17,011 bases of DNA from an uncultured archaeon. GTDB lineage: Archaea > Asgardarchaeota > Thorarchaeia > Thorarchaeales > Thorarchaeaceae. The notes beneath the pieces are model-generated. The model was given only the letters and a program-made list of their open reading frames with translations, searched no databases and was not told the origin of the DNA. The position numbers and the translations under genes were made by a program. Of this stretch, positions 169 to 17,011 are shown one piece after another; position 1 is the first letter of the stretch, and each line of letters starts with the position of its first letter. The stretch lies in contig CAYYQL010000047.1 of the NCBI GenBank assembly GCA_964473825.1, forward strand, positions 1-17,011. Direction: 5' to 3'.

Positions 169-185
169 CAGGAAGGATTTATTAT
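169..185 (+). promoter_or_regulatory. Putative archaeal promoter (purine-rich BRE + TATA box)
   Basis: CAGGAAGGA (169-177) is immediately followed by TTTATTAT (178-185), about 55 nt upstream of ATG 239. An SD-like GGGTG lies at 227-231. Confidence 0.55.
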
Positions 186-190
186 CTAGT

Positions 191-238: not shown

Positions 239-328
239 ATGAGAATGAGAGAGAGTCTCGTAGCTCTAGCTATGCTTGTATGCTTTCTGTGTGCTTTTGG
301 AACATCTTCAACTCTGCCTGTGAGAGCG
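239..328 (+). other. Sec/SPI-type signal peptide
   Basis: Basic n-region MRMRE, hydrophobic core LVALAMLVCFLCAFG, polar c-region ending P-V-R-A|E. Confidence 0.75.
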
Positions 329-2749
329 GAGTCAGTCCCTGACGGTTCTGGACCGTTTGTTGATGAACTGGTTTTCAAGACCGTCTGGAACGATGATGAG
401 AAGGTCTATGCCCTTCTGAACGATGAGGCGGATGTTGTTGGCGACATGATTCATCCGACCTTTTTGGATACCCTGCAGAGTTCTCAGGACATCGGAATCA
501 TGACCACCCCAAGAAACGGATACGGGTATATGACGATAAACTGTGACAAATATCCCCTGAATATCACTGCCTTTCGTAGAGCAATGGCTTTTGCACTCGA
601 TAAACAAGGAATATCCGATAACGTGTGGGATGGCCTCTCTGAGCCATTGGATGCCGTTGTGCCTAAGATAAACCCGTTCACCATAGAGGGACAGTTGACA
701 TTCTCCTACTACAATCCCAATCCAAGTAAGGGGAATCAACTGCTGGACGCCGCAGGCTTTCTTGATGTTGACGGTGATGGGTATCGAGAGGCGCCTGATG
801 GAACCGATTTCTCAGTAGAAGTTGTATCAGCAGATGCTTCAAGCATAGCTATGCAGATTGGTGACTATGGCGCGGGGGCTCTGCAGAGTCTAGGCATTGA
901 TGCCATCTCTGTGCCCAAGGACTATTTCACTTTCATTCAGACTCTCTATCATCACGGTGACTATGACATTGCATTTCTCGGCTCAACTTTCGACGACCTT
1001 GATGTTGATTGGTTGGCGTACGAATTCTGGTCCGAGTACGCTGACGAGCCGTATTTTAACTTCCCAAACTTCCGAAACGCAACATACGATTCGTGGCGCA
1101 ATCAGCTCCTTCACTCGGCCGACTACCAAGATGTCTACGACGCAGCAATCGAGATGCAGCGAATATTGGCGTATGAATGTCCCCTCATCATTGCGTATGA
1201 GAATAATGTGATCTCTGCGTATAGAACTGACAGATTTGAGGGACACGTCAATGATTTTGCTGATGGAGCAGCCAGCTGGTGGACGAATCAGAGGGTTCAT
1301 CTTAAAGAAAGCCTTGGTGGTCCCTATGGCGGGTCCTTTAGATGGGCATTACCCTTGGATCGAGATAATTTCAATCTACTAATCTCTCTGAGTGTTTATG
1401 ATTCATCCCTCAAGCAAGAGCTTTATGACGGAGTGTTGAAACGCACACCAGACGGTGAACTGATTCCATGGCTCGCCGAATCTTACGTTGCTGAGACATA
1501 TTGGGACAACCCCGCTGTGCCAGAAGGGCATACGCGATTCAAATTCAATTTTGTCACCAATGCTTCTTGGAGTGACGGAATGCCCTTAACAGCCCAAGAC
1601 GCCGCATTCACAATTAACTATTACTTCGAACACGGTCTAGTGGGTGGCGAGTTCTTACAAGAGGGGCTATACGCAGCATATGCTCCAACAGACTATCAGT
1701 TAGTTGTTGAGTTTGTTGGGGAGTCCTACTGGCACCTCACATCACTCGGAAAGCTAGAAGTACTTCCAAAGCATCAGCTGGCCGGAGTTGACCCCTATAC
1801 TTGGAGCCCTAGTTGGGACGAATTAGTCACGTCTGGGCCATTCCGCCTAGCGGAGAGAGTACCTGGCGAATTCATCCGCATGGAGAAAAACTCTCTATAC
1901 TTCAAGACCCCACTGACCGGAGAAACAACTTCGTCTTCACCTTCTGACTCACCCGCCGTCTACTCAACCGATGTGTCACTTCAAGGGTTTGAGGCCGCTT
2001 CATCAGAAACTCTGAAACCACCTGATCAGAAGTACGACGCCGTTTTGCAGGAGTATCTCGAAACTGAAGAGATACCAGATTCCGTAGTGAAGACAGCATG
2101 TGGGGACTCGAATGTGATAGTTTATGTTTCTAGCGAAGATATTGCTGAAGCTCTTGAGGAGGAGTTTGGGGTGAAGTGGAAGATGAATCTAGGACCCGCG
2201 GTCGTTGTTCATGCATCTATCTCATCTGCAAGAGAACTTCGTCGTCTTGGAGAGAACGAAGGTGTGCTGTATGTGAAGGCAGATATCGTGGAGAACAGAG
2301 CAGATTCGCTTGATACCACTGCTTCAAAAGGACTGAACTCGTTAGAGACCCGAGATCTGATAGGAGCAAACGGGATCTACGCATCTGGATACAACGGTTC
2401 AGGAGTGACGGTAGGTGTGGTTGACAGCGGAACCGACTTCAGTCACCCCGATCTGCAAACAGCGATGTCCGTTGACGAATACGGAAGGCCAACCTCCTAC
2501 GATCCAACAGGATGGGGAATCCAACTCATGGTTCGAGCCAATTCTTCGGTACTAGTAGATCCGGATGCTTGGCTCGCTGAGGGCAACGTACTCACCTATC
2601 AGAGTGGAGGAAACTACTATATTAACACCACAGGTTGGGACCCTATTGTGAACAACCAAGGGCGGAACTCGATATCTCATGGGTCTTCTTCCGCCATACG
2701 GAAACGGGTATCCAGAGGGAACCGATTTCGGTTTCATTGGAGCCTATGA
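239..2749 (+). CDS. 5' part of giant frameshifted gene: signal peptide + family-5 ABC transporter substrate-binding domain + propeptide + N-terminal fragment of S8 serine peptidase (catalytic Asp)
   Basis: 836-aa ORF with a hydrophobic N-terminus ending in VRA. SBP family-5 motifs: FRRAMAFALDK, LYDGV..GELIPWLAESY, WSDGMPLTAQDAAFT, SGPFRL..PGEFIRMEKN. Subtilase Asp motif GVTVGVVDSGTDFSHPDL (Asp codon 2423-2425). The last ~28 aa (RNSISHG...WSL) look out of frame. Confidence 0.9.
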   Translation: MRMRESLVALAMLVCFLCAFGTSSTLPVRAESVPDGSGPFVDELVFKTVWNDDEKVYALLNDEADVVGDMIHPTFLDTLQSSQDIGIMTTPRNGYGYMTINCDKYPLNITAFRRAMAFALDKQGISDNVWDGLSEPLDAVVPKINPFTIEGQLTFSYYNPNPSKGNQLLDAAGFLDVDGDGYREAPDGTDFSVEVVSADASSIAMQIGDYGAGALQSLGIDAISVPKDYFTFIQTLYHHGDYDIAFLGSTFDDLDVDWLAYEFWSEYADEPYFNFPNFRNATYDSWRNQLLHSADYQDVYDAAIEMQRILAYECPLIIAYENNVISAYRTDRFEGHVNDFADGAASWWTNQRVHLKESLGGPYGGSFRWALPLDRDNFNLLISLSVYDSSLKQELYDGVLKRTPDGELIPWLAESYVAETYWDNPAVPEGHTRFKFNFVTNASWSDGMPLTAQDAAFTINYYFEHGLVGGEFLQEGLYAAYAPTDYQLVVEFVGESYWHLTSLGKLEVLPKHQLAGVDPYTWSPSWDELVTSGPFRLAERVPGEFIRMEKNSLYFKTPLTGETTSSSPSDSPAVYSTDVSLQGFEAASSETLKPPDQKYDAVLQEYLETEEIPDSVVKTACGDSNVIVYVSSEDIAEALEEEFGVKWKMNLGPAVVVHASISSARELRRLGENEGVLYVKADIVENRADSLDTTASKGLNSLETRDLIGANGIYASGYNGSGVTVGVVDSGTDFSHPDLQTAMSVDEYGRPTSYDPTGWGIQLMVRANSSVLVDPDAWLAEGNVLTYQSGGNYYINTTGWDPIVNNQGRNSISHGSSSAIRKRVSRGNRFRFHWSL
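350..1906 (+). other. Family-5 (OppA/DppA/NikA-like) solute-binding domain, circularly permuted
   Basis: Starts GPFVDELVFK..ALLNDEADVV, has GGSFRWAL at ~1328 and WSDG at 1568, and ends SGPF...EKNSLYFK. Confidence 0.85.
2030..2284 (+). other. Subtilase propeptide-like (I9-like) segment
   Basis: KYDAVLQEYL...NVIVYV...VVHASISSARELRRLGENEGVLYVKAD directly precedes the catalytic domain. The terminal 'L...GV.YV..D' pattern is typical of subtilase prodomains. Confidence 0.6.
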
Positions 2750-4058
2750 GTACTATTGGGATATACCTCAGTTTTCGGAGTTTGTCTACAATGAGATGTG
2801 GAAGCACTGGCAGATACCGGCACCCACCGGGCAAGACTACCGGGTAGGCTGGGTACATGAGCAGAGGCAAGACCGATACGCCAAGGTTTTTGCTCCCGCA
2901 CTCATCATTGACGGACAAGAAGTAGTAATAGACTGGAATGGTTCTATTGCCTGGACTCAGATGTGGAATTGGGCGGCATATGACCGGAGTATAGACCTCA
3001 GTGTCCAAGAGGATCGGGACATGATATCGGGTAAGATGGATTGGAGCTTCGTTGATGACATAAACGAAGGTTACACTTTTACAGTGACGGGAAACAACAT
3101 CCTGAGCGCCGACGTAGATGACGATGGTATCACCGATTGGGGACTGGGCTCGTTAACTTGGGCATACGATGATCCTGGATTCTTTGCAGACGAGCCTTTG
3201 TTCTGTGGCATAAGGTCTGATGCGATGGCTTTCGCTCTGATGTATACCTCTGAGAACAGCCATGGCCAGATTGTTGCATCTGCGCTGGGTTCAAGAGGTG
3301 TGATGGAGCATGAAATCTACCAGAACGGCTCTCTGTACCAGTTACCCGGCATTGCCACTGGTGCGAATCTCATGGCTGTCAAGGGTGTGACCTCAGGATC
3401 GGACTTGGGTGCTCTGTTTTGGTCAGCAGGCTTCCATCTGAACGCTACATCTGGCTACTGGGAGTATACAGGACAGCATAAGGCCGATCTCGTATCCAAT
3501 TCTTGGAACTATGAACAGGGTTCGTATCTTGACCTGACTTTTCTGACTATGACTTGGGACCTCGTGTCCGCACCTGGTTTTGCTCATCCCGACAATCCAG
3601 GCACTCTATTTCTGTTCTCTTCTGGAAACTCAGGCGCCGGGTACTTAACCTCGAGTCCCCCAGCAACCTCTGGCGCAGTGGTCTCGGTCGGATCGGTGTG
3701 GTCTACCCATTCAGCGCTGTCGGAGACTTCAGCCGGATTGAATGCGTACTTTGGTTCGAACGGTCCATCTCTAGTTGGTCTTGTCAAGCCTGATATAGTA
3801 TCTCCTGGTGCAGGTGTTACATCTTCGGCACTGCAGAATGTTCTCTTGGGTGGTCAATCCTACAAGTGGTGGCACGGTACTAGTTTCTCCTGTCCTGTTG
3901 TTTCAGGGGCAGCAGCACTCATCCTCGAAGCCCTCTCTGCCAATGGAATGCCAACTGACTCTCTGACTCTGAAGCAGATTCTCCTGTCAAGTGCACGAGA
4001 CCTTGGATATGATGCCTTTGTCCAGGGCCATGGAATGGTTGATCTTGAAACGGCAATC
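2342..4058 (+). other. S8 subtilisin-family catalytic domain with large Asp-His insertion (spans the frameshift)
   Basis: Asp 2423, His 3261, oxyanion Asn 3627 and Ser 3882 codons occur in canonical order with canonical flanking motifs. Confidence 0.9.
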
Positions 4059-7000
4059 ATGGCAATCGAAACTCGCTCCGCAGGTCACTACTATTTCGAG
4101 TCCAACGAGAGCTACAACAACTACGCTCAGATAATGAATGATGCTTGGTCTGATTGGATGTTCATGAATTGGGCCGGTATTCACCAAACATCTCCCTCTC
4201 ACCCCCAGGACCTTGGTAGTGCCAGCCTATTCTTCGGAAATGTGTATCCAGGCGATTCGGCAACGATGACGATGGAAACCAAGGGATACGACGGATCGGT
4301 CAATAACCTGACTGCATTCAGCTCTGTTACAGCATGGCACTATGTCGGCCAGGGTCCACTCACGTACGAGATAGACAGCTACTGCTACGATGTTGCTGGA
4401 GTAACACATTCCGGTTTCCACAATCTTACAGACGTACTCGAAGCATCCATCCATAACAATCTGATGAGCTCTCCTTATGCAACACTGAGCCTCAGATCCT
4501 GTCCCGAAACGTCCAACTTCTGGATAGAGCTAATAGACTGGGAGGACTCCGATGGAAACGGCGTTGTGAATCACTATGTCGATGATATCAACTTCGGAGA
4601 TCAGATAAGAGTCATAACCACAGACAGACATGATGCAAAAGCGCTATGGCTGCGGATTGCAGATATTGCTTCGATTGATAATCTGTTTGATCATACTCCT
4701 ACACTTGTGGTTCATGACCCTGACACCAGCGGCGGAGGAAGCCACCACCTCTATCTTGAGGTGAGCATCTGGAACCGACAAAGCAGCTCCTCAATGTCGA
4801 TATCTGATGGTGCTGACAACTCCATTAGTTTCCAGCTCAATCTTCCAACTGACGCTGAACCGGGCATCCACCAGGGATTCATCGAATTCTCTGATACAAC
4901 AAGTGGTTTTCTGCATCAGGTGCCGTATTCCTACATGGCAGTCTACAATGCGTCTGCTCAGGAAGGGGTCAGAGACACCATAGTTGACAAGTTTGGCTTA
5001 GAATACACACCATACGAGAACGGAGCTATCATGTCGTCTGTTTCGATCAGATCCGATACACGCGCTGATTGGGGCGGATATCTCTCCTTTGCTATAGATG
5101 TCCCGTATACTCAAGCAGAGGTTCTGGTCTTCAGGACAATATCTGACTCAGGTGGCTCTCCCATAGATATGTATCTCCGGTCAACTAGCTATCACCTCCT
5201 CGCTAGCACGGATGATGGGTACTCTTCAGATGATAATCCTGACACTCCGTTGTTCAGCCCAGAGGGTACAGGAGCAGGTACAAATACTCTCATTTATGAT
5301 CCCGGTAGTTCGGTTGCTGGCAAATACTACCTGATGCTTGCAGCCTATGATTCGGGATATAGCTGTATTCCTCAGCAATTCAATCTGACGTTCGTCTGGT
5401 TGGCGGAGCTCCCTCAACCTAGTCCAGATCTGACATGGTCATCACTATGGGACAGCAATCCATCTGCTGTTTCCGAACATGATATACTAGTGGGCGATCA
5501 CGTTACTGTGAACGGTTCCTGGGCCATGCCCTCGGTCGATGCTGTACCTGAGTACTCCATCAGTCAGACCAATCTACAATTCGCATCTGGCGTCTACTTC
5601 GAGCATACTCAGGATGTGTTGGTTCCCCCCTACTGGGCAGATGTGTTCAGCATGTATCCAATAGACCCAGATCTATTCTCTTGGATGTACGTTGACGGCA
5701 TCAAAGAAGGTGATGAGGTTCGCATAGAGGTGTCTTTTACAAATGCCGATTGTGATGTGATGGTCTGGTGGGCAGACACTGACAGTAGTGAGTGGGCGTA
5801 CTCAAATAATCTTGTGGGAAACCAGATGGCCACGAGCCGTAATCCAGAGGTTGGATCATTCGTAGCTGAGCGTTCGGGTACCATTGCCGTGGGGAGTTTC
5901 GACTACTCTGTAGACGATGGCCTATGGACTCTAGTTGTAGACACCCGTGACTTTGTCGAAACCAGTGCTGAGAATGACTGGCTTACGTTCGATACTGCTT
6001 CATTTGGCAAGAACACGACTCGCGATGTGATACTTGTGGGCCGAAATGATGCAGGGATGCAGTTCGAAACTCAATGGCTAAATATCACATTCCGCAATTT
6101 CTTCGCTCCTGACGTGACGGTAGTTTCCCCAAACGGTGGAGAAACTCTTGTTGGCGCTTACACTATTTCTTGGGCTGCAAGTTCACTCAACATCGATCAT
6201 CAATTCACGCACGATGTTTACATCTCCAATGACTACGGACTCACCTTCCAGCTATACGCGAGAGGTCTAGGAACTACTTCATATGACTGGGATACCTCCA
6301 TATGGCAAGAAATGGACTCGTATATGGTCCAAATACGTACGCATGATCGGGGAATGATTGGGGAAGATCGGTCTGATAATGTCTTTCGGGCGGGAGAGGT
6401 TCCCGTGGTCGATGATACAGCTCCAGAAGTCACGGGCATAGCTGAATATGAATACATGGAGCTTGAAACAGATAACATCATCCAATGGCAAGCCTATGAT
6501 CTACATCCAGACTACTTTGAGATTTGGATTGATGATGTTCTGCATACAGCTTTTGATTGGCGCTGTTCATACGAAGTATTCCAATCGAACATTGATGGAC
6601 TTGAAGTCGGTACCCACAACGTTACAGCAAGAGCCGTAGACCAAGCCGGCAATAGCAAGACTGCGACGTCAACTGTGACAGTAACAGCAGACCTGCCCCC
6701 GATAATCATTGGTCCTGCGGATCTCAGCTACGTCGAAGGAACGACTGGGCATCAAATAACTTGGCAACTGTCAGACTATAACCTGCATGGGTACAAGATT
6801 CTGCTGAACGGGACAGAGATTGTGGAGGGGCTATCGGATTCATCATCTCAAGGAATTGATGTTTCAGGGCATACTGTTGGCGTGTATAATTATACAATAC
6901 TGGTTAACGATACACTTGGTCAGTATTCTAGTGACACAGTTCTTGTTGGAGTGGTCAATGTTGTGGAGATCTACTCCAATGAGGATTTTGCAATCCAAGG

Positions 7001-10000
7001 CTGGCCAGGTAGCGGCACTGCGGTCGACCCATATGTAATTGATGGACTTAGTATCAGCCACAATGGAATCGCCGTAAGAATTGAGAACGTTGATGCTTTC
7101 TTTATTATTCAAAACTCACATTTCTCATCCTTTGGTGGAGGAGGCACAGGAATCTATCTTGTGAACTGCCGGAACGCATTGATAATCTCATGTGAGTTCG
7201 AAACAAGATACGGTATCTACCTTTGGAATTCTTATGCATCTAACATTTCAGATTGTGTGTTCAAATCATCTCGATATGGTGTATATCTTCGCGAGAGCAG
7301 TCAATGCAATCTCAACGGGAATGATTTCACTGGCTGCGGAGTTCGCATATCCGGATCAGATGAGTCTCATGTTGATCATAGTTTTGATGCTAACGTGGTG
7401 AACGGATTACCTCTTGGTTACTTCCATCAGACCTCTAATCTTGTGGTGGATGGGTCATCTTTTGGTCAGGTCATCTTGGCGGAATGTGTGAATGTGACAG
7501 TAGAGGGCGGAGAGTTTCAGGGAGTGGCAATGCAGATACTTTTCGGGTCTCAGTGTTCATTCCGAGATATGACCATCACTGAAAGTGCAGTGGGAGTGGC
7601 TTTGTATTCATCATCACAGTGCACGATTCAAAATGTAGGCATCGATGGCTCACAGTACGGTATTGAGGCTCGTCTTTGCCCTAGCTTGCGTATCCTAGAC
7701 TGTGATGTAACAGGCAGTATGTTCCCGGGCATATCCATATACGATTCAGATCACTCGCTGATTTCAGCTAACAATGTAAGCCATGGTAACCACTGGGGTA
7801 TCCGTGTTGATGTTTCAGAAAACGTTACCCTCATTGGGAATTTGGTTTCCTTCAACCGCTACAAAGGGATTTGGGTGACTTCAAGCTCCAATGTTTTGGC
7901 AGATGGCAACGAGGTGTTCTCTAACCAGGAGTCTGGTCTCTGGTTCGAAGACTGCGAACAGAGCTATGTGTACAACAACTCCCTGTACCTCAATAGCTGG
8001 CATGGATTGTTCGTGTTGCGTTGTGATTCGATGGATATCTCTAACAACACTGTCTATAGCAATAACGAGCATGGGATAGCCGTTGGAGATTCGTTGAGTT
8101 GCTTCATTGAGAATAACCTAGTCTATGATGCTGGTGGTCACGGGATTGAAGTGTGGCACTCAGACCATGTCCGTATAAGCTCGAATGTTATCTATGACAC
8201 TGTGTGGACTGGGATATCTCTATACAGCGGATGGTACTGTAATATCACCCATAACACGGTCTATCTGAATCAAGAAGATGGCATTCGGGTTGGAGATTCC
8301 TATTACTTCCAAGTCAGTGGCAATACCATACACGGAAGTGGCTGGTGGGGCATACGCTCTTATTATTCCGAACACGCTACTCTGAGCGATAATCTGGTAT
8401 ATGCTTGTTCGGAGAATGGAATAGGCATCCATGATTCACTTCACTTCCTGGTTAAGAACTGCACCGTTCTTGACAGTGGATGGTCGTCACTGAGCCTGTG
8501 GAAAGTGAATCACACCCGAGTAGAGGGGGGTAACTACACTGATGCCGATGGATGGGGGCTTGCAATTAGCAACTCCGTCAATGTGACCTTCTTCGGGACC
8601 TATCTCCATAATCGTCCTTCAACAGCTATGCACGTGGGCAATTGCTGGGATGTGAAACTTGTGGAGATGTACATCCATGATGCAATCGGCTTGGCAATAC
8701 ACATTGAAGACACCCATGATAGCTGGATTGAGAATTGTACAATCTACGACACGGGTTACACGGCAGTTCTTGCACAAAGATGCAATAATTTCCGTTTCAT
8801 TGGTAATAGTGTAAATCGGAGTAGACAGGCTGGTTTGATACTCGAATGGTGTACGGGTGCATACGTAGCTGGCAACGCATTTTGTTGCAACAGGTGGGAA
8901 GCCATATCACTCAGCGACAGTGATATGTGTACACTGGTGAATAACATAATAGAGAACAACCGTCGTAGGGGGATTCTTGTTGATTCACGGTCGGAAGCTA
9001 ATCTACTATACATGAACTACATAGGATGGAATGGGGATCAGAATGCGCAGGATGATGGCTTTGACAACCAGTGGGATGATGGCGTATCTCAGGGCAACTA
9101 CTGGAGTGACTACGATGGAGTTGGTTACTATTCCGTCGAGGGAATGGCGGCAAGCGTAGATAGATATCCCACCCTGTGGACCGATGATGTTCCACCGTCC
9201 CTGAATGAGCAAGATGACCTAGGCTTCTACGAAGGCACGACGGGCTTTTCGATAACATGGAATGCAACAGACAGGCATCCCGGGTCCTACAAGGTCTATT
9301 CGGATGGAGCCGTCATACGTGAGGGGGTCTGGTTCTATGATATACTCTCGGTCACTTTGTCGCTTGATGGCTATCCGTTTGGAGTCCATAACATTACCAT
9401 TGTTGTCTGGGACGCTGCAGGAAATGTCGCACGGGACACCGTTATGGTGGACGTAATGGATGGCACCATCCCTGTATTGACCAGTCCTCCAGACATGGCT
9501 TTCGGCAAATCAGAGTCTGGTTACGTCATAGATTGGACAGCGGAGGATGACCATCCATCGAACTACGAAATCTTCCTCGATAGCATTGTCATTGAATCTG
9601 GCACTTGGACCGCAAATATACAGGGATTCTCTGTACTCCTGGATGGACTGGAGGTGGGGATATACAACTACACTCTAGTTGTAATCGACGCTGGTGGGAA
9701 CAGCGCGTTCAATAGCGTGATGGTGGAGGTCTTCGATGATACTATTCCGATACTAAATCATCCCGCTGATGTGACGTACGAACACGGGGAAACCGGTCAC
9801 AGTATCGAATGGTCGCCCTCCGATGGTGATCCAGTTAGTTATGAAGTGTTCTTGGACAGCGCTTTGCTTGTTTCGGGACCATGGAACGTGACTGGAGAAA
9901 CGATTGTAATCTGTGTAGATGGTCACACTCCAGGAGCGTATAACTACACAATCGTTGTAAGTGACATAGGCGGTAATACGGCCGCTGACACTGTCTTAGT

Positions 10001-13000
10001 CACTGTTTTGGACGACTCAACACCTCCTGTAGTAACAAGTCCAGAGGATGTTGAGTTCGCAGAAGGGTCCACGGGTCACACACTGTCGTGGAAGGCCTAT
10101 GATCTGCTACCTCAATCCTATGCAGTCTTTGTCAATGACATAGTCATGACCTCTGGTCTATGGAGTGTTTCTGGACAGACGATAACCTATTCTCTTGACG
10201 GTCTTTTGCTTGGGACACACAACGTGACACTCGAGGTCGTTGATGAAGGAGGAAATGCAGTATCTGATCAGGTGAATGTTCTTGTATTTGACGGAACTGC
10301 TCCGGTCTTGGACAGTCCTTCAGACATAACTTATGAGGAAGGTGCGATTGGCAATGAGATCGAATGGGCCGTTAGCGATGCTCATCCTGCCAATTATAGC
10401 ATCTATAGAAATGACATCAAGATCGAGTCTGACAATTGGGTAAGCGGGTATATCATAGTCTGTGTGGACGGTCTCCTTCCGGGCGTCTATTATTACGGCA
10501 TCGTGATTGCTGACGTAGGCGGTAATGAGGCATCAGATGTCGTTATTGTGACTATTGTGGACACTGTGAAGCCGACAATTGATTCTCCACCCGACATTGA
10601 GTATGAGGCCGAAACTCTCGGCCACAGCATAACTTGGACACCATCAGATGCACATCCGAGTTATTATATCATTCATAGGAATGGGACAATGGTCAAGAGC
10701 GGCGACTGGTCGGGGTCACAGATCACAGTCAGCGTTGACCGGCTAAGCCCAGCACTCTATAATTTCACAATCACCGTGTTTGACGAGAGCGGAAACTCGG
10801 CCTCCGATACTGTCTGGGTGAAGGTCAATCCGACTCCAACAGATGAGGAGCCACCAAAGATTGACAGCCCTACTGATATCCAATATGAGGAGGATATGAC
10901 CGGCAACACAATCCAATGGAATCCTGCAGACGCAAATCCATGCTCATATGAGATTCTACGAAATGGCAGTGCCCTTGAGAGTGGATCGTGGTCAGGCGAA
11001 AGCATCTCTATTTCGGTGGATGGTCTATCTGCTGCGCTCTACAATTACTGCATCGTAGTCCACGATACTTTTGGCAACTGGGCACAGGATTCGGTCTGGG
11101 TTAACGTAACACCCAAGCTTGTTGATACGGTTCCTCCAACTCTTAGCAGCCCATCAGACATCGAGTATGAGGAGGAGAGTACTGGACATTTGATCACATG
11201 GGAGGCCTACGACGAATATCCTCTGTCCTATGAATTACTGAAGAATGGATCAACAATCATCTCGGGGGCGTGGGATGGCGGCGACATCTCGATAGGCGTG
11301 GACGGACTGGCAATGGGGCTATATAACTACACTCTCAGAATTGTCGACGAAGGTCTGAACTCGGCGACAGATACTGTCTGGGTCAATGTAACAGAGAAGT
11401 TTGTTGACAGTGTTCCGCCCTCACTTGGCAGTCCATCTGACATCGAATATGAGGAAGAAACGACTGGCCATTCCATAACTTGGACCGCTAATGATGAGTA
11501 TCCTGACCAGTACCAGATAGTTCGCAATGGAACGCTTCTGGAGTCTGGCACATGGGATGGTCTAGACATCTCAATTGGAATTGACGGACTACTGCCTGCT
11601 CTATACAACTACACCGTCATCGTTTTGGACATCGGAGGCAATAGCGTTTCAGACACGGTCTTTGTAAGTGTTACAGAAAAATTCGTGGATAGCACTCCTC
11701 CCACAATTGACGCTCCGCCTGACATCGAGTACGAAGAAGAAACAACAGGCAATGGCATCACGTGGACACCCTCCGACGAGTATCCTGATTCCTATGATGT
11801 AATACGTGATGGAGTTGTCATCGAGTCTGGCTCATGGACCGGCGGGCAAATCTCAGTCGGGATTGATGGACTCTCGCCAGGTATCTACGTCTATAGGCTC
11901 ATTGTCTACGACATCGCCGAGAACTCTGCTAGCAACTCGGTCACGGTTACAGTCAATGAGAAGTTTGTTGACGAAATAGATCCAACAATAGATAGTCCTC
12001 CAGACGTTGAATATGAGGAGGATTCGACAGGAAACTTGATAACCTGGAACCCATTTGATGACTTTCCCGCGGAATACAAGATTTTCCGGAATGGCACACT
12101 CCTTCATTCTGATTCGTGGAACGGTGACGCGGTCGTCATAGGGATAGATGGTCTTAGTCCGGGCCTCTACAACTACACGGCAGTAGTCTATGACACTTCT
12201 GGGAATTGTGTGAGCGACGCCGTTATGGTTCATGTTACTGAAAGGATTGTGGATTTGACTCCACCTACCTTGACACAACCTGATGACCTCTGCTACGAGC
12301 TCGGAACACCAAGCAACAGCATTCAGTGGGACGTGAGTGACGAGAATCCGGGACAGTACACCATATACCGCAATGGTGCGATAGTGAAGACGGGGAGCTG
12401 GCAATCTTCATCGGTAGGTCTTGGTGTGGATGGTCTCTTGGAGGGCGTCTACAACTGCACGATTGAGGTTTTCGATTCCTTCGGTAACTCAGCAGTTGAT
12501 ACCGTCTTTGTAACAGTAGACCCAAGTATTGCACCCACAATAAATGACATCGAAGAGATCCTCTATGAGGAGGATGAAACTGGTAACAAGCTGAGATGGA
12601 CACCCTCAGACGCTCACCCAGATTTCTATGAGATATTCCGCGATGGAACTCTGATTAAGACAGGAGTCTGGTATGGATTTGGCATAGAGATATCGGTAGA
12701 TGGGCTCTCACCTGACACATACAACTACACCATACTGGTCTATGATAGTGCCGGTAACTTTGCAGTAGACAGTGCCTATGTCGTCGTCACCACGAAAGTG
12801 TCTGACTGGACCCCTCCCACTGTTGACAGTCCGAACGACGTTATCTACGAAGAAGGATTACTCTGTGGATGGATTGAGTGGCATCCTGACGACCTACACC
12901 CGCATAGCTATCGAGTCCTAAGAAACGGAAGCATCGTTCAGTCAGGAACTTGGGATGGCAGCTCTATACGAATAGGCGTTGGTGGACTGCCGGTTGGTTC

Positions 13001-16000
13001 TTACAACTACACCCTCATTGTGACAGATTCCTATTCTAACTGGGCGTGTGACAGTGTAATGGTGATAGTGAACGACGCTGAGATTGATGTGACACCGCCC
13101 TGGATTGAGCCCCATGAGAATGTCACCTATACCGAAGGGAATCTTGGTAATTCGATATACTGGATTATCTGGGAAAGCAATCCTCATTCTTATGAAATCA
13201 AGCGTGACAGTGCCATTATCAGGTCTGGAGTGTGGGACGGTTCCAATATCTCTGTCAACATTGACATGCTGGCTGCAGATATCTACTACTACCAGTTAAC
13301 GGTAGAAGACACCTCCGGGAATGTCAGCAATTCCACTGTCGAGGTAAACGTGATTCCTCAAGGAACAGGAACCGAACAGGACGAGTCCTCGCCTTCACCA
13401 TCAGCGGGTCCAACCATCTCACATCCTGAGGACTTCTCATATGAGGAGAATAGCAAGGGACACTCAATTCTTTGGAGTGCAGGTTCATTGGATCCGTTGT
13501 CTTACGCAATCTACCGAAACGGACTGTTGCTGGAGGGTGGCATCTGGGCTGGAGACGATATAGGAACTGATGTGGATGGCCTTGCTCCGGGCCTCTACGA
13601 ATTCACACTTGTCGTTACCGAGAGCGGTGGGACAAGCGCGAGTGATTCAGTTTTCGTGACTGTTGAAACTTCAACTCCACCTTCAGTAACAGGTCCTTCC
13701 TTCCTTCAGTTTGAGTATGGAGAGAGCGGCCACTCGATATCGTGGTCTGTGTCTGATGCATATCCTGCCACCTATTTGATCACATGTGATGGCTCTGCCA
13801 TTGATTCGGGAATGTGGAGCACAGGTACACTGAGTGTCGATATCGATGAGCTGTCCGCGGGATCCTATGAATATGTCATCACCCTCTATGATGCCTCTGG
13901 CAACTCGGCGGCTGAAACGGTGAGTGTAATTGTCGAAGAGCCCTGCGCGCCCCTATTGGACAGTCCTCCAGATTTGAACTATGATGAGGGAACTACAGGT
14001 CATCTCATTGTGTGGAATCCAAGCGACTCCTATCCAAGCCACTATGTAGTAAAGAGAAATGGTTCTGTACTTGAATCAGCTTCATGGTCTGGCATGAGAA
14101 TAGAATATGCAGTTGATGGAATGCCGCCAGGGTTCTATGTCTACAGTCTGACGGTATACGACCTCGCGGGTCACAGTAGCAGCGACGCTGTGAATGTCAA
14201 GGTCTTCGAGGTCATCATCGACGAGAGTCCCCCACTTCTGGTCGGTCCTGATGATATCTACTTCGAGGAAGGTAGCCTTGGCCACATAGTTACTTGGGAG
14301 GCTTCCGATGATCATCCTACATGCTACGAAATGTGGCATGACGACATCCATGTCGAGTCAGGCTCCTGGGATGGTTCCGATTTTGTAGTAGATGTCAGTG
14401 CGTACATAGCTGGTACTCACAACCTGACGCTGTTGCTTCTGGATATAAGCGGAAACCTGGCTTTTGACACTGTGCTAGTACACGTCTCAGTAGCGACACC
14501 GCCAGACGTTGACCATCCGACAGACGTGACATATGAGGAGGGCGCTCTGGGTAACTCGATAACTTGGAACGCCGCAGACTCCTATCCTGACTCCTACAAG
14601 ATATACCGAAATGAGAGCCTCGTCCGCTCAGGTGATTGGACCGGAGGCTCTATCTCTATTGTTGTCGATGGTCTATCTGCTGGAAACTATGTGTATTCAA
14701 TTTCGGTTTTGGACCTAAGCGGCAATTCAGCATCAGATAGCGTTTTAGTATTCGTTCTAGAGCCGATTGCGCCTAGCTGTTCGAGCCCCGACAATCTTAC
14801 CTTCGAAGAGGGTATGATCGGATTTGTGATTACTTGGTATGCAACAGACAACTATCCTGACTCGTTCACTATCAAGAAGAATGGATCCCACGTAAAGTCG
14901 GGCTTGTGGTCAACGGATGCCATAACGATAAGCCTAGATGGTCTGAGTGCTGGCGTCTACGAGTACATTATCACAGTGAAGGACGAGGCTGGACATCAAG
15001 CCTCTGATATCGTCTATGTGGATGTCATCCCAGGTGTGTCACCTCAGGTCCAACCACAACCCGATGTCTCCTTAGAGCAGGGAACCTCAGGCAGGTACAT
15101 TATATGGGAACCTTCAGATTTGTATCCCGACAGATATGTGATTACGCGGAATGGCAGCATCGTTCGCTCAGGTTCATGGACAGGAGATACAATTCAGGTG
15201 GCTCTTAGCGGTCTGGCAGCAGGGAAGTATCCCTATCGACTGAAAGTCTATGATATGGCTGGAAACTCAGCGTCAGACGATGTAGTAGTACTCGTTGATT
15301 CGTCGAACGCTCCGCTACTGGACAGCCCTGCAGATATTCAATACGAAATCGGCAGCGAGGGCCACATCATCAGCTGGAGTCCGTTTGATTCTTATCCTAA
15401 TTCATACGTGATTAGCAGAGATGGTAACGCCATAAGTTCGGGTGGATGGACTGGCGGATCGATATCAATACAAGTTGATGCTCTGCAGGCTGGAATGTAC
15501 GAGTACGTTTTGACAGTGAAAGATCAAGCTGGTAACACCGCCTCTGATACTGTCACTGTCATAGTTGAACCTAGCAGTCCGCCATCTATCGATTGCCCCC
15601 CGGACATCACTTATGAGTATGGCACGAGCGGAAACAGGATAGTCTGGGCTCCGCGAGATAGATATCCCGCCAGCTATAAGGTTTTACGTAATGGCACTCT
15701 TATTGTATCAGGAGGCTGGAGTGGGCAGAACGTGAGCATCGGAGTGGATGGTCTTCCAGTTGGCAATTACTCCTATCAGCTTGTTGTAACTGATAAGAGC
15801 GGCAATAGTGCTGAGGATACTGTGCTCGTCATTGTTGAGGAACCCTCTGTCATTCTACCAGAGCTCAACGTAGTTGTTTCAGCGCAAACAGAACACATTT
15901 CGGCCGGACAGGACATTCTTTACACAATTTCCTGCATGAATATCGCTGGCGGCAATGCAACACGAGTCGTACTGAGACTGAATATCAGCGACCTCCTCAT

Positions 16001-16652
16001 CTTCGTGAACTCTACGCATAGCTATTCAATAAACGGTACGCAAATGGTATTCCTGCTCGGTGAGATTGCCTCTTACACGACGGAGAATCTTGGGATAGTG
16101 TTCCAAGTCAGCCTTCTAGCCAGTAACGGAACCCAACTCTGGGTTAATGCAACACTGCACTACTTCGACGTCACCGGAACCAGCGAGTTCTTCTCAACTG
16201 ACGCATCTCTGGTCACGGTCCTGACAGATATTCCAACAAATACAGTTCAGAAGGCTATGTGGTGGAAGAAACAGTTCCACTGGGTTGTGATTGGAAAACA
16301 GGCAGAGTACTCTGAGGAATATCTGCTCGATCTGGTTCTTGCGATTGCCTCATCATCTGATGTGTTTAGCCATGTCACAAGTATCAAGGATGCGCTCGCG
16401 GTGCTCAAGCTAGAAACCACAAAGGGTGTGCGAGGATTAGCGATGAGAGAGCTCTATGGTGTGTGGCTCAATCTGGCAAATGATGCACTTACATCTGACA
16501 CCAACGTAGATTTAGGTGACCTCAGCACAGCCGGCACGGTAGGTGAAGTCATTCTTGAATGCGAAGCCATTCTTCTTGACCAGGATGCAACACTAGAGGA
16601 CCTGAGGAGAGTGATGAAGATATGTTCCTCTGTGAACTCGGGGACAGCGTAG
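2679..16652 (+). CDS. 3' part of giant frameshifted gene: S8 serine peptidase (His/Asn/Ser), PPC/Ig-like domains, NosD-like right-handed beta-helix, 24 tandem Ig-like repeats, DUF11-like domain, C-terminal helical domain
   Basis: 4657-aa ORF containing SHGQIVAS (His 3261-3263), FSSGNSG (Asn 3627-3629), GP..VKPDIVSPG, HGTSFSCPVVSGAAALI (Ser 3882-3884) and QGHGMVD. It has no signal peptide and no catalytic Asp of its own, so ATG 2679 is probably not a real start. The frame is open back to 2652 (TGA at 2649-2651). Confidence 0.92.
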   Translation: MGLLPPYGNGYPEGTDFGFIGAYEYYWDIPQFSEFVYNEMWKHWQIPAPTGQDYRVGWVHEQRQDRYAKVFAPALIIDGQEVVIDWNGSIAWTQMWNWAAYDRSIDLSVQEDRDMISGKMDWSFVDDINEGYTFTVTGNNILSADVDDDGITDWGLGSLTWAYDDPGFFADEPLFCGIRSDAMAFALMYTSENSHGQIVASALGSRGVMEHEIYQNGSLYQLPGIATGANLMAVKGVTSGSDLGALFWSAGFHLNATSGYWEYTGQHKADLVSNSWNYEQGSYLDLTFLTMTWDLVSAPGFAHPDNPGTLFLFSSGNSGAGYLTSSPPATSGAVVSVGSVWSTHSALSETSAGLNAYFGSNGPSLVGLVKPDIVSPGAGVTSSALQNVLLGGQSYKWWHGTSFSCPVVSGAAALILEALSANGMPTDSLTLKQILLSSARDLGYDAFVQGHGMVDLETAIMAIETRSAGHYYFESNESYNNYAQIMNDAWSDWMFMNWAGIHQTSPSHPQDLGSASLFFGNVYPGDSATMTMETKGYDGSVNNLTAFSSVTAWHYVGQGPLTYEIDSYCYDVAGVTHSGFHNLTDVLEASIHNNLMSSPYATLSLRSCPETSNFWIELIDWEDSDGNGVVNHYVDDINFGDQIRVITTDRHDAKALWLRIADIASIDNLFDHTPTLVVHDPDTSGGGSHHLYLEVSIWNRQSSSSMSISDGADNSISFQLNLPTDAEPGIHQGFIEFSDTTSGFLHQVPYSYMAVYNASAQEGVRDTIVDKFGLEYTPYENGAIMSSVSIRSDTRADWGGYLSFAIDVPYTQAEVLVFRTISDSGGSPIDMYLRSTSYHLLASTDDGYSSDDNPDTPLFSPEGTGAGTNTLIYDPGSSVAGKYYLMLAAYDSGYSCIPQQFNLTFVWLAELPQPSPDLTWSSLWDSNPSAVSEHDILVGDHVTVNGSWAMPSVDAVPEYSISQTNLQFASGVYFEHTQDVLVPPYWADVFSMYPIDPDLFSWMYVDGIKEGDEVRIEVSFTNADCDVMVWWADTDSSEWAYSNNLVGNQMATSRNPEVGSFVAERSGTIAVGSFDYSVDDGLWTLVVDTRDFVETSAENDWLTFDTASFGKNTTRDVILVGRNDAGMQFETQWLNITFRNFFAPDVTVVSPNGGETLVGAYTISWAASSLNIDHQFTHDVYISNDYGLTFQLYARGLGTTSYDWDTSIWQEMDSYMVQIRTHDRGMIGEDRSDNVFRAGEVPVVDDTAPEVTGIAEYEYMELETDNIIQWQAYDLHPDYFEIWIDDVLHTAFDWRCSYEVFQSNIDGLEVGTHNVTARAVDQAGNSKTATSTVTVTADLPPIIIGPADLSYVEGTTGHQITWQLSDYNLHGYKILLNGTEIVEGLSDSSSQGIDVSGHTVGVYNYTILVNDTLGQYSSDTVLVGVVNVVEIYSNEDFAIQGWPGSGTAVDPYVIDGLSISHNGIAVRIENVDAFFIIQNSHFSSFGGGGTGIYLVNCRNALIISCEFETRYGIYLWNSYASNISDCVFKSSRYGVYLRESSQCNLNGNDFTGCGVRISGSDESHVDHSFDANVVNGLPLGYFHQTSNLVVDGSSFGQVILAECVNVTVEGGEFQGVAMQILFGSQCSFRDMTITESAVGVALYSSSQCTIQNVGIDGSQYGIEARLCPSLRILDCDVTGSMFPGISIYDSDHSLISANNVSHGNHWGIRVDVSENVTLIGNLVSFNRYKGIWVTSSSNVLADGNEVFSNQESGLWFEDCEQSYVYNNSLYLNSWHGLFVLRCDSMDISNNTVYSNNEHGIAVGDSLSCFIENNLVYDAGGHGIEVWHSDHVRISSNVIYDTVWTGISLYSGWYCNITHNTVYLNQEDGIRVGDSYYFQVSGNTIHGSGWWGIRSYYSEHATLSDNLVYACSENGIGIHDSLHFLVKNCTVLDSGWSSLSLWKVNHTRVEGGNYTDADGWGLAISNSVNVTFFGTYLHNRPSTAMHVGNCWDVKLVEMYIHDAIGLAIHIEDTHDSWIENCTIYDTGYTAVLAQRCNNFRFIGNSVNRSRQAGLILEWCTGAYVAGNAFCCNRWEAISLSDSDMCTLVNNIIENNRRRGILVDSRSEANLLYMNYIGWNGDQNAQDDGFDNQWDDGVSQGNYWSDYDGVGYYSVEGMAASVDRYPTLWTDDVPPSLNEQDDLGFYEGTTGFSITWNATDRHPGSYKVYSDGAVIREGVWFYDILSVTLSLDGYPFGVHNITIVVWDAAGNVARDTVMVDVMDGTIPVLTSPPDMAFGKSESGYVIDWTAEDDHPSNYEIFLDSIVIESGTWTANIQGFSVLLDGLEVGIYNYTLVVIDAGGNSAFNSVMVEVFDDTIPILNHPADVTYEHGETGHSIEWSPSDGDPVSYEVFLDSALLVSGPWNVTGETIVICVDGHTPGAYNYTIVVSDIGGNTAADTVLVTVLDDSTPPVVTSPEDVEFAEGSTGHTLSWKAYDLLPQSYAVFVNDIVMTSGLWSVSGQTITYSLDGLLLGTHNVTLEVVDEGGNAVSDQVNVLVFDGTAPVLDSPSDITYEEGAIGNEIEWAVSDAHPANYSIYRNDIKIESDNWVSGYIIVCVDGLLPGVYYYGIVIADVGGNEASDVVIVTIVDTVKPTIDSPPDIEYEAETLGHSITWTPSDAHPSYYIIHRNGTMVKSGDWSGSQITVSVDRLSPALYNFTITVFDESGNSASDTVWVKVNPTPTDEEPPKIDSPTDIQYEEDMTGNTIQWNPADANPCSYEILRNGSALESGSWSGESISISVDGLSAALYNYCIVVHDTFGNWAQDSVWVNVTPKLVDTVPPTLSSPSDIEYEEESTGHLITWEAYDEYPLSYELLKNGSTIISGAWDGGDISIGVDGLAMGLYNYTLRIVDEGLNSATDTVWVNVTEKFVDSVPPSLGSPSDIEYEEETTGHSITWTANDEYPDQYQIVRNGTLLESGTWDGLDISIGIDGLLPALYNYTVIVLDIGGNSVSDTVFVSVTEKFVDSTPPTIDAPPDIEYEEETTGNGITWTPSDEYPDSYDVIRDGVVIESGSWTGGQISVGIDGLSPGIYVYRLIVYDIAENSASNSVTVTVNEKFVDEIDPTIDSPPDVEYEEDSTGNLITWNPFDDFPAEYKIFRNGTLLHSDSWNGDAVVIGIDGLSPGLYNYTAVVYDTSGNCVSDAVMVHVTERIVDLTPPTLTQPDDLCYELGTPSNSIQWDVSDENPGQYTIYRNGAIVKTGSWQSSSVGLGVDGLLEGVYNCTIEVFDSFGNSAVDTVFVTVDPSIAPTINDIEEILYEEDETGNKLRWTPSDAHPDFYEIFRDGTLIKTGVWYGFGIEISVDGLSPDTYNYTILVYDSAGNFAVDSAYVVVTTKVSDWTPPTVDSPNDVIYEEGLLCGWIEWHPDDLHPHSYRVLRNGSIVQSGTWDGSSIRIGVGGLPVGSYNYTLIVTDSYSNWACDSVMVIVNDAEIDVTPPWIEPHENVTYTEGNLGNSIYWIIWESNPHSYEIKRDSAIIRSGVWDGSNISVNIDMLAADIYYYQLTVEDTSGNVSNSTVEVNVIPQGTGTEQDESSPSPSAGPTISHPEDFSYEENSKGHSILWSAGSLDPLSYAIYRNGLLLEGGIWAGDDIGTDVDGLAPGLYEFTLVVTESGGTSASDSVFVTVETSTPPSVTGPSFLQFEYGESGHSISWSVSDAYPATYLITCDGSAIDSGMWSTGTLSVDIDELSAGSYEYVITLYDASGNSAAETVSVIVEEPCAPLLDSPPDLNYDEGTTGHLIVWNPSDSYPSHYVVKRNGSVLESASWSGMRIEYAVDGMPPGFYVYSLTVYDLAGHSSSDAVNVKVFEVIIDESPPLLVGPDDIYFEEGSLGHIVTWEASDDHPTCYEMWHDDIHVESGSWDGSDFVVDVSAYIAGTHNLTLLLLDISGNLAFDTVLVHVSVATPPDVDHPTDVTYEEGALGNSITWNAADSYPDSYKIYRNESLVRSGDWTGGSISIVVDGLSAGNYVYSISVLDLSGNSASDSVLVFVLEPIAPSCSSPDNLTFEEGMIGFVITWYATDNYPDSFTIKKNGSHVKSGLWSTDAITISLDGLSAGVYEYIITVKDEAGHQASDIVYVDVIPGVSPQVQPQPDVSLEQGTSGRYIIWEPSDLYPDRYVITRNGSIVRSGSWTGDTIQVALSGLAAGKYPYRLKVYDMAGNSASDDVVVLVDSSNAPLLDSPADIQYEIGSEGHIISWSPFDSYPNSYVISRDGNAISSGGWTGGSISIQVDALQAGMYEYVLTVKDQAGNTASDTVTVIVEPSSPPSIDCPPDITYEYGTSGNRIVWAPRDRYPASYKVLRNGTLIVSGGWSGQNVSIGVDGLPVGNYSYQLVVTDKSGNSAEDTVLVIVEEPSVILPELNVVVSAQTEHISAGQDILYTISCMNIAGGNATRVVLRLNISDLLIFVNSTHSYSINGTQMVFLLGEIASYTTENLGIVFQVSLLASNGTQLWVNATLHYFDVTGTSEFFSTDASLVTVLTDIPTNTVQKAMWWKKQFHWVVIGKQAEYSEEYLLDLVLAIASSSDVFSHVTSIKDALAVLKLETTKGVRGLAMRELYGVWLNLANDALTSDTNVDLGDLSTAGTVGEVILECEAILLDQDATLEDLRRVMKICSSVNSGTA
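5067..5945 (+). other. Region with two PPC-like (pre-peptidase C-terminal) beta-sandwich modules
   Basis: IDMYLRSTSYHLLASTDDG...AGKYYLML (~5067-5400) and GDEVRIEVSFTNADCDVMVW...NPEVGSFVAERSG (~5700-5945) resemble PPC patterns. Recognised by eye only. Confidence 0.45.
6105..6956 (+). other. SPNGGE-type Ig-like domain followed by two Ig-like repeats
   Basis: VTVVSPNGGE..YTISW..YISNDYG..SYDWDTS (6105-6395), then two units of the same repeat family as the distal array (DDTAP...DQAGNS; DLPP...YNYT...DTV). Confidence 0.7.
6960..9182 (+). repeat. NosD/pectin-lyase-like right-handed parallel beta-helix (~740 aa)
   Basis: N-cap GWPGSGTAVDPYVI and C-cap NQWDDG..GNYWSDY..DRYP. Repeated GI.(V/L)..S....I.NN.(V/I) coils, with an exact 23-aa period from 7659 to 8969. 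Confidence 0.88.
9183..15836 (+). repeat. 24 tandem ~90-94-aa Ig-like (Big/HYR-like) repeats
   Basis: Consensus D..PP.(I/L).SP.D(I/V).YEEG..G..I.W...D..P..Y.(I/V).RNG....SG.W.G..I.(I/V).VDGL..G.YNYT..V.D..GN.A.D.V.V.V. I counted 24 units by eye; they are diverged at the DNA level. Confidence 0.9.
15858..16223 (+). other. DUF11-like domain
   Basis: PELNVVVSA....AGQDILYTISCMNIAGGNATRVVL....LLIFVNS...FLLGEI....VFQV...NATL matches the remembered DUF11 pattern. Confidence 0.65.
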
Positions 16653-16760: not shown

Positions 16761-17011
16761 TTAGCGCCATAAAAGATCAATGATGGGTCCGGCGCGCAGC
16801 TTTCCTTCCTGCTCAATGAGGTTTCGAAGCAAGTCTGCAGATGTCTGATAGTGCAAGAACGCCGACTTGACTGATTCATGGTCGTCTTCGTCAATCTCAA
16901 CAATCATGTGTTGAAAGATCTCCTTATGATCTGCGATTGTTGGAGGTATGCCATGCAGAAAGAGAATGGTTTCGGAGGCATGGTTTCTCACAAGATAGTC
17001 TGGATCGTTCG
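16761..17011 (-). CDS. 3' end of a HEAT-repeat-like hypothetical protein (partial, runs off the window)
   Basis: The frame of the listed 76-aa ORF stays open to the window edge, reading NDPDYLVRNHASETILFLHG..., which fits the HEAT motif D.D..VR..A. TAA is at 16763-16761, convergent with the giant gene. Confidence 0.65.
   Translation of the reverse strand, partial: NDPDYLVRNHASETILFLHGIPPTIADHKEIFQHMIVEIDEDDHESVKSAFLHYQTSADLLRNLIEQEGKLRAGPIIDLLWR

Follow-up and report, generated by a model that had tools for sequence, protein, structure and literature searches.

The window analysed here, the whole 17,011 nucleotides of contig CAYYQL010000047.1 (contig C47) from an uncultured Thorarchaeota (Asgard) archaeon, carries one gene for a giant, secreted, heavily acidic subtilase, joined at its amino end to a substrate-binding protein (SBP) of the kind that serves ABC importers. 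Once a single extra base is removed, the product reads, in order, as a signal peptide, the SBP module, a pro-region, the peptidase S8 domain, about 800 unassigned residues, two Ig-like domains, a beta-helix, 24 further Ig-like domains, a DUF11 domain and a helical C-terminal domain. New here are the circular permutation of the SBP, its standing as the best-conserved large part of the fusion, and the absence of transporter genes beside the fusion genes. We tentatively read the protein as a cut-and-capture enzyme, a giant SBP-subtilase whose tethered SBP would bind products for Opp-type import and whose gene is broken by a frameshift in this copy, and we place that reading a little below an even chance. 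The genome comprises 3.27 Mb in 103 contigs and is 95.7% complete.

The gene is split into two long open reading frames (ORFs) on the forward strand, ORF1 (239..2749, 836 amino acids, aa) and ORF2 (2679..16652, 4657 aa, in the +1 frame), which form a single gene interrupted by one extra G. Where the window reads CAA GGG CGG, alignments against ten intact homologs and the full-length relative P0299 give CAA GGC GGA as the expected reading. Searches by tblastn with intact homologs switch frame at about position 2660, and relatives pass the break site uninterrupted as NN(Q/N)-GGTR. Removal of the extra G yields the frame ...NNQ GGTRYLMGLLPPYGNGYP..., matching the relatives, and a repaired product of 807 + 4663 = 5470 aa, which is the length given by an original prediction made from the letters of the window. 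Past the GGG run, ORF1 continues out of frame until the stop codon at 2747-2749; no second stop or lesion was found in the 16.4 kb. The subtilase catalytic domain is interrupted here, the extra base separating Asp from His and Ser. From the unrepaired gene, only a secreted 836-residue SBP-pro fragment without His and Ser could be exported, and ORF2 as it stands lacks a signal peptide. None of the fusion ORFs found in relatives is interrupted.

In a Logan assembly of run SRR7048218, made independently, one contig of 17,093 bp agrees with the window at every one of the 12,749 bases compared (100%), the frameshift site included. The consensus of the reads therefore includes the extra base, which cannot be put down to a single assembler; this copy has thus probably become a pseudogene only very recently, or is a within-population variant. 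A chimeric join between the SBP and S8 regions, an eventuality for which the original prediction had allowed, is ruled out by the colinear intact relatives together with the identical independent assembly. Collapse or expansion of repeats by the assembler is likewise ruled out; the repeats have a mean pairwise identity of 40%, and the longest exact DNA repeat is 16 nt.

The N-terminal domain is an SBP, as had been proposed, and within ORF1 it stands in frame with the Asp motif of the protease (residues 720-748, 15.8 bits), so that the fusion of the two was read correctly from the start. Pfam model SBP_bac_5 (PF00496) scores 165.9 bits against a cut-off of 32.4, in two stretches that follow one another in the wrong order: profile positions 143-364 fall on residues 36-267, and positions 1-141 on residues 407-555. 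The same order is returned by phmmer against PDB, with query 109-348 on chain 268-515 and query 363-556 on chain 62-248, and by the NCBIfam OppA model, positions 60-122 of which match residues 386-458. By this shared order, the module is a circular permutant of family-5/cluster-C SBPs. Part 1 holds the end of domain I, domain III and the C-terminal part of domain I; part 2 comprises domain II together with the N-terminal portion of domain I, and the link between the former termini falls around residues 350-362. By the domain limits of DppA, the new termini would lie inside domain I, and both hinge crossings would be intact after permutation. The module has the fold and family of DppA, OppA, AppA, NikA and the chitooligosaccharide-binding protein. 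It differs from canonical cluster-C SBPs in its segment order, the chain running from about residue 200 to the C-terminus and then from the N-terminus to about residue 250, and in its fusion to a protease.

An AlphaFold2 (AF2) model of residues 30-575, computed with an alignment of 53 family members, shows one compact fold (pLDDT 93.7, pTM 0.90), and the module is thus modelled as a complete bilobed fold. Every one of its top structural matches is a cluster-C SBP. Model residues ~3-330 lie on the C-terminal ~300 residues of solved cluster-C SBPs with Z of 25-29 (by VIA-align, 3-327 on residues 202-507 of 1dpp, Z 27.6), and the alignments end at the very last residue of the solved chains, as expected of a permutant. 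Foldseek and VIA-align, which align sequentially, reach about 60% of the SBP model, residues ~3-330; for the rest of the fold (residues 360-560), the N-terminal part is matched by sequence only.

Permuted SBPs form a large family. An exhaustive, profile-free search at E<=1e-30 found 266 clusters, nearly all colinear with the permuted order and 580-750 residues long, and the family therefore numbers at least 266 clusters at 50% identity, operon-encoded members included. All named members come from Thorarchaeota or Hodarchaeales, and matches to the permuted SBP occur in 70 of 76 sampled genomes of the archaeal family to which this genome belongs. The genome under study encodes five permuted and two canonical family-5 SBPs and has at least four Opp-type ATPase loci. 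The opp genes that the original prediction suggested seeking outside the window are thus present, one set of them beside the closest stand-alone paralog. This paralog, on contig C4 (624 aa, 52% identical, with the permuted order and a C-terminal transmembrane (TM) helix), is located after oppC-oppB and faces oppD/oppF. The nearest stand-alone relatives in three other genomes (G005, G281 and G055) adjoin oppC genes 67-71% identical to the C4 copy. By their place beside opp genes, the members of the permuted family are genuine ABC-importer binding proteins, and it is from such permuted Opp-type binding proteins, native to the lineage, that the fused module descends.

The fusion itself recurs. 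P0299, an intact protein of 5475 aa encoded on a 106-kb contig, aligns in a single high-scoring segment pair over residues 1-5469 at 49% identity and has in common the SBP, pro-region, S8 domain, middle part, beta-helix, DUF11 domain and helical C-terminus. Residues 1-2240 are colinear with ten intact Thorarchaeota proteins of 2300-2850 residues, whose C-termini consist of a Thr-rich stalk followed by a TM helix. A search for this architecture had been advised by the original prediction. Among 85 other genomes of the family, seven have ORFs that span the SBP-S8 junction, which encode intact fusions of the shorter, membrane-anchored kind; these genomes belong to six genera, and one has two copies. 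No close ortholog was found with this query in genomes of the same genus. The nearest sequence relatives are uncharacterised Thorarchaeota proteins annotated just as "ABC transporter substrate-binding protein".

In most genomes of the family, the SBP and a protease of ~1600 residues are separate proteins. The unfused paralog in this genome (contig C12, 1601 aa) has a signal peptide, a Thr stalk and a TM anchor and no SBP; it is colinear with residues 565-2038 at 31% identity, sharing the pro-region, S8 domain and middle part. In a FastTree analysis of 266 SBP modules, whose SH-like support is to be read with caution, 11 of the 12 modules fused to S8 group together in a single clade (SH-like 98) lying within the stand-alone SBPs, the exception being that of P0012. 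Identity among the fusions is 53-56% in the SBP, as against 39-53% in the S8 core, 25-29% in the pro-region and 33-39% in the remainder. Judged by these values, the SBP is the best-conserved large segment of the fusions and thus not a decaying relic. Because two separate and widespread families are fused in a minority of genomes, the recurrent fusion supports, as a Rosetta-stone argument, a functional link between them.

SBP modules occur in other large proteins as well. P0019 (4308 aa), P0013 (2427 aa) and P0101 (6240 aa) have two or three SBP modules or an internal one, and P0019 contains, besides permuted modules, one in canonical order (Pfam profile 1-364 at residues 1578-2013). Further partners to which the modules are joined are LamG-type, C11 peptidase and PKD-only proteins.

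The remainder of the protease follows in ORF2, as foreseen, where residues 189-451 match Peptidase_S8 at 87.8 bits (1e-24). Asp729, His1009, Asn1088 and Ser1216 (Table 1) are conserved in the ten homologs and P0299. An insert of ~280 residues separates the catalytic Asp and His, and a long insert at this place is a trait of TPP II and the pyrolysin group. By sequence, the closest solved S8 enzymes are SubHal/KP-43, TPP II and Tk-SP (E 4e-18 to 1e-10). These enzymes of pyrolysin/TPP II and KP-43/SubHal type (1wmd, 5fax, 3lxu, 3afg) share long C-terminal extensions with the giant protein; they differ in that the identity is low and confined to the His-to-Ser part, and in lacking an SBP, a beta-helix and the 24-domain Ig array. 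The residues around the motifs divide the fusions: this protein, P0003 and P0005 have HGQ/HGH/HGV and GTS-F/L-x-C/T-P (window 3261-3884), and other fusions carry HGTATAAH and GTSQSAPV, which hints at two subtypes of fused protease.

The pro-region is a candidate I9-like propeptide, as its position and the order of its secondary structure suggest; no Pfam match to the I9 family was found in it. Structure prediction of the modules, another check that had been proposed, succeeded for the SBP and failed here: the AF2 model of homolog P0011:557-1324, made with 12 sequences, is poor (mean pLDDT 43.9) and was not used for fold searches. Only the pro-region part of that model is moderately confident (residues ~30-130, pLDDT 70-85), with a beta-alpha-beta-beta-alpha-beta order. 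The segment of ~800 residues beyond the protease (residues 1266-2060) has no Pfam (E<=1), NCBIfam or PDB sequence match and is colinear with homologs at 33-39% identity.

The beta-helix is matched by PF13229 Beta_helix (279 bits, 8e-84), PF05048 NosD (223 bits, 3e-66) and TIGR03804 (158.7 bits), all in ORF2, which bears out the beta-helix of the original prediction. P0012 and P0299 have it, and the homologs of 2.3-2.8 kaa (thousand amino acids) lack it. With a single repeat as its starting point, a profile search detects 26 Ig-like units of ~88 aa, two before the beta-helix and 24 contiguous after it; the latter, repeats 3-26, each score E 1e-32 to 1e-40 and make up the predicted 24-domain stalk. 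Against P0299 the 24-repeat block aligns over 2216 residues with one gap column, so repeat number, and hence stalk length, seems conserved rather than free to drift. A PPC domain, which had also been predicted, was not recovered: PF04151 has no match in the whole protein (E<=0.01) or in the unassigned segments (E<=1). The C-termini of P0013 and P0299 match the C-terminal domain of ~170 residues, probably helical, at 40% and 42% identity, respectively. This domain has no Pfam or NCBIfam match and no paralog in the genome, and an Atlas search with it gave weak leads only (scores <=0.87).

An extracellular location is indicated by the signal peptide, an excess of sequons, and the Thr-rich stalk and TM anchor of homologs. 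Cleavage of the signal peptide probably occurs after VRA. The signal peptide is the sole long hydrophobic stretch of the whole protein; no further stretch that could form a membrane anchor was found in the giant form. In window 6420-15839 there are 75 N-x-S/T sequons, compared with 47 +/- 6 in shuffled sequences, and two fixed columns of the repeat hold them, one in 12 and the other in 14 of the 26 units. Acidic residues (748 D+E) outnumber basic ones (213 K+R). Sequon enrichment and acidity together suggest a surface protein that is heavily N-glycosylated.

Table 1. Features of the gene, by position in the window; residue numbers refer to the repaired protein.
Feature	Position	Strand	Remarks
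Sec-type signal peptide	239..331	+	Residues 1-31; basic n-region, hydrophobic core, A-x-A-like site (by eye)
SBP module part 1 (permuted)	344..1288	+	Corresponds to canonical residues ~200-515
SBP module part 2 (permuted)	1316..1918	+	Corresponds to canonical residues ~35-250
Pro-region/linker	1919..2383	+	Residues 561-715; colinear with N-terminal region of unfused C12 paralog
Peptidase S8 catalytic domain	2384..4031	+	Residues 716-1265; Pfam Peptidase_S8
Asp729	2423-2425	+	DSGTD
Frameshift site	2660-2662	+	GGG run; intact relatives imply GG
His1009	3261-3263	+	HGQ
Oxyanion Asn1088	3498-3500	+	SNSW
Ser1216	3882-3884	+	GTSFS
Family-less segment, ~800 residues	4032..6416	+	Conserved in all homologs and unfused protease paralogs
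Ig-like repeats 1-2	6420..6956	+	Repeat profile E 8e-27 and 6e-31; HYR/OmpL47-type matches
Right-handed parallel beta-helix (NosD/PbH1-type)	6957..9191	+	Cys-rich (23 Cys); Pfam, TIGR03804
Ig-like repeats 3-26	9192..15839	+	24 contiguous units of ~88 aa; K319L-like PKD/Big_13 type
DUF11	15864..16142	+	PF01345, 8e-06, 26.5 bits vs cut-off 24.6
Conserved C-terminal domain, then stop codon	16143..16652	+	No TM helix; similar to P0013 and P0299 C-termini

In the cut-and-capture reading, the protease would cut extracellular polymers or protein, and the SBP on the same polypeptide would bind the short products, most likely oligopeptides. Held at the enzyme rather than diffusing off, these would go on to Opp-type importers encoded elsewhere, either directly or once set free; reach and attachment would come from the beta-helix and Ig array. 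Metagenome-assembled genomes of Asgard archaea are reported to combine peptidases with Opp/Dpp transporters, and such a protein-degrading lifestyle fits (PMC8072921). The original prediction had put this scheme forward. It is supported in part: the fusion is real and constrained, in a genome with opp genes elsewhere, but peptide specificity is not supported.

Several points weigh against this reading. Five fusion loci of relatives, each covering 14-20 kb, contain no oppB, oppC or oppD, so the fusion genes appear to have left the opp operon context, and the gene is broken in this genome. The giants with multiple or internal SBPs seem to fit a generic binding-domain role better than delivery to a transporter. 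The SBP sits at the far N-terminus; in the short forms the predicted layout puts ~2000 residues between it and the anchor, and the giant form appears anchorless. Docking on a membrane permease would therefore be sterically awkward. Subtilase propeptides of family S8 are normally auto-cleaved, and the pro-region lies between the SBP and the catalytic domain, where cleavage could sever the covalent tie between them. As for the ligand, the best PDB sequence matches are the chitooligosaccharide-binding protein of Vibrio and the mannoside-binding protein TM1223 of Thermotoga (E 1e-15 to 4e-13). In an hhalign comparison of the family profile with E. coli DppA, Arg383 (precursor numbering) falls in a gap, and the Asp436 column, which holds Asp here (ORF1 residue 252), varies among P/S/D/E/T across the family.

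The alternative that survives best, unlikely on our estimate and yet to be taken seriously, is that the SBP never meets a transporter and acts as a targeting or regulatory domain of the protease, through substrate recruitment or as an allosteric switch. Its venus-flytrap fold would then serve for binding alone, the ligand being some feature of the substrate or a small molecule. Much of what was just listed would follow: fusion genes no longer in opp operons, two or three SBP modules or an internal one in P0019, P0013 and P0101, and a giant form without a membrane anchor, along with the joining of SBPs to LamG-type, C11 peptidase and PKD-only partners. The fused modules are nonetheless still 55-60% identical to operon-encoded transporter SBPs, with no accelerated divergence and no visible sign of a changed function. 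At the opposite pole is a bolder form of cut-and-capture, which we consider rather unlikely to hold in full. Here the protein would be a one-piece foraging device whose tip SBP catches peptides released by the protease and hands them to Opp, and the permutation would have moved the chain ends so that a module tethered at its C-terminus, to a membrane anchor or to a 5000-residue stalk, works; the protein would then represent the first physical link between polymer degradation and substrate capture for an ABC importer, and a natural permutant class of cluster-C SBPs.

Quite unlikely is an adhesin-protease, in which the SBP binds oligosaccharides and, with the beta-helix, anchors the protease to glycan-rich particles or other cells. 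Chito- and mannoside binders are the top PDB matches by sequence, ahead of AppA, DppA, OppA and NikA, and the residues that hold peptide termini are not conserved. NosD/PbH1-type beta-helices, moreover, are typical of carbohydrate-active proteins, and the beta-helix here is of that type. Against this, the best NCBIfam match is the oligopeptide SBP Opp4A (2.7e-31), a ranking by structure (VIA-align) puts AppA and DppA level with the sugar binders, and the partner enzyme is a protease. It is improbable that the SBP and pro-region are cut off during maturation and are then free or retained non-covalently, the fusion serving for equal co-expression and co-export. The SBP does lie upstream of a region colinear with the pro-region of unfused proteases, and that region has a propeptide-like order of secondary structure and would be of a kind that is normally auto-cleaved; however, it has no I9 family match, the model is of low confidence, and a cell lacking an outer membrane would lose an SBP that was set free with no anchor. 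Programmed +1 ribosomal frameshifting, by which the full protein would be made despite the split, is hardly credible and was rejected as an explanation of the site: a +1 shift at GGG-C would restore exactly the reading of the relatives, but the next codon is an ordinary CGG (7.1 per 1000, not rare), the shift is conserved in no relative, GGGCGGA occurs 306 times in the genome, and no stimulatory element was seen, none having been sought.

Among known systems, the nearest functional parallel to cut-and-capture is lactococcal PrtP (lactocepin, S8), a large surface subtilase from which released oligopeptides are captured by the cluster-C protein OppA for OppBCDF. The logic is the same; PrtP and OppA, however, are separate proteins, whereas here one polypeptide combines both activities with a permuted SBP, no PA domain and no LPXTG anchor, in an Asgard host. 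In transporters of the GlnPQ and OpuA type, tethered and even tandem SBP domains still deliver substrate. There the SBP is fused to the permease; here it sits at the tip of a stalk, joined to an enzyme. The unfused anchored subtilases of Thorarchaeota (~1600 aa) have the same pro-region, S8 domain and middle part, and differ in their Thr-rich stalk, TM anchor and lack of an SBP.

The original prediction knew of no characterised protein with this architecture, and we too found no paper describing one: literature searches on SBP-protease fusions, permuted SBPs and giant surface proteins of Asgard archaea returned nothing relevant, within a coverage of subscription journals that is thin and so not proof of absence. 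The products of extracellular proteolysis diffuse to neighbours, a public-goods problem to which a protease that binds its own products would be a simple molecular answer, in this case for Asgard archaea living on detrital protein in sediments. Because it recurs, the fusion links two abundant Thorarchaeota families so far unconnected, the anchored subtilases of ~1600 residues and the permuted Opp-type SBPs. The permuted family also provides a natural experiment on what chain connectivity means for a venus-flytrap protein and for the way it docks to a permease.

Some observations concern the loci of related genes. In two genomes (G212:C50, locus L023, and G143:C110, locus L022), a 2.6-kaa fusion gene occupies a conserved chromosomal slot, the flanking genes of which are 66-74% identical to those on contig C32 of the present genome (L007 2790-11603). 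The slot on C32 holds only a 709-aa stand-alone permuted SBP, with a caspase-like (Peptidase_C14) ORF beside it. Just downstream of the operon SBP on contig C4 (L006 11793-12662) is a 289-aa ORF with a sub-threshold Presenilin match (PF01080, 8.5e-07, 28.5 bits vs cut-off 34.3). Adjacent long frames whose ends overlap in different frames occur on the minus strands of contig C14 (2907 + 2586 aa) and contig C1 (2821 + 2187 aa); these pairs may be more giant genes split by frameshifts, or just overlapping neighbours.

The window encodes just the one giant gene and, as originally noted, no permease or ATPase. On the minus strand there are only short ORFs, which lie antisense to the giant gene, and Rfam finds zero RNA families in the window. 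Inspection by eye shows an A/T-rich motif, TTTATTAT, at window 170-190, a possible archaeal TATA box some 55 nt ahead of the start codon. The final ~230 bases (window 16780-17011), again by eye, resemble the tail of a convergent minus-strand gene truncated where the contig stops.

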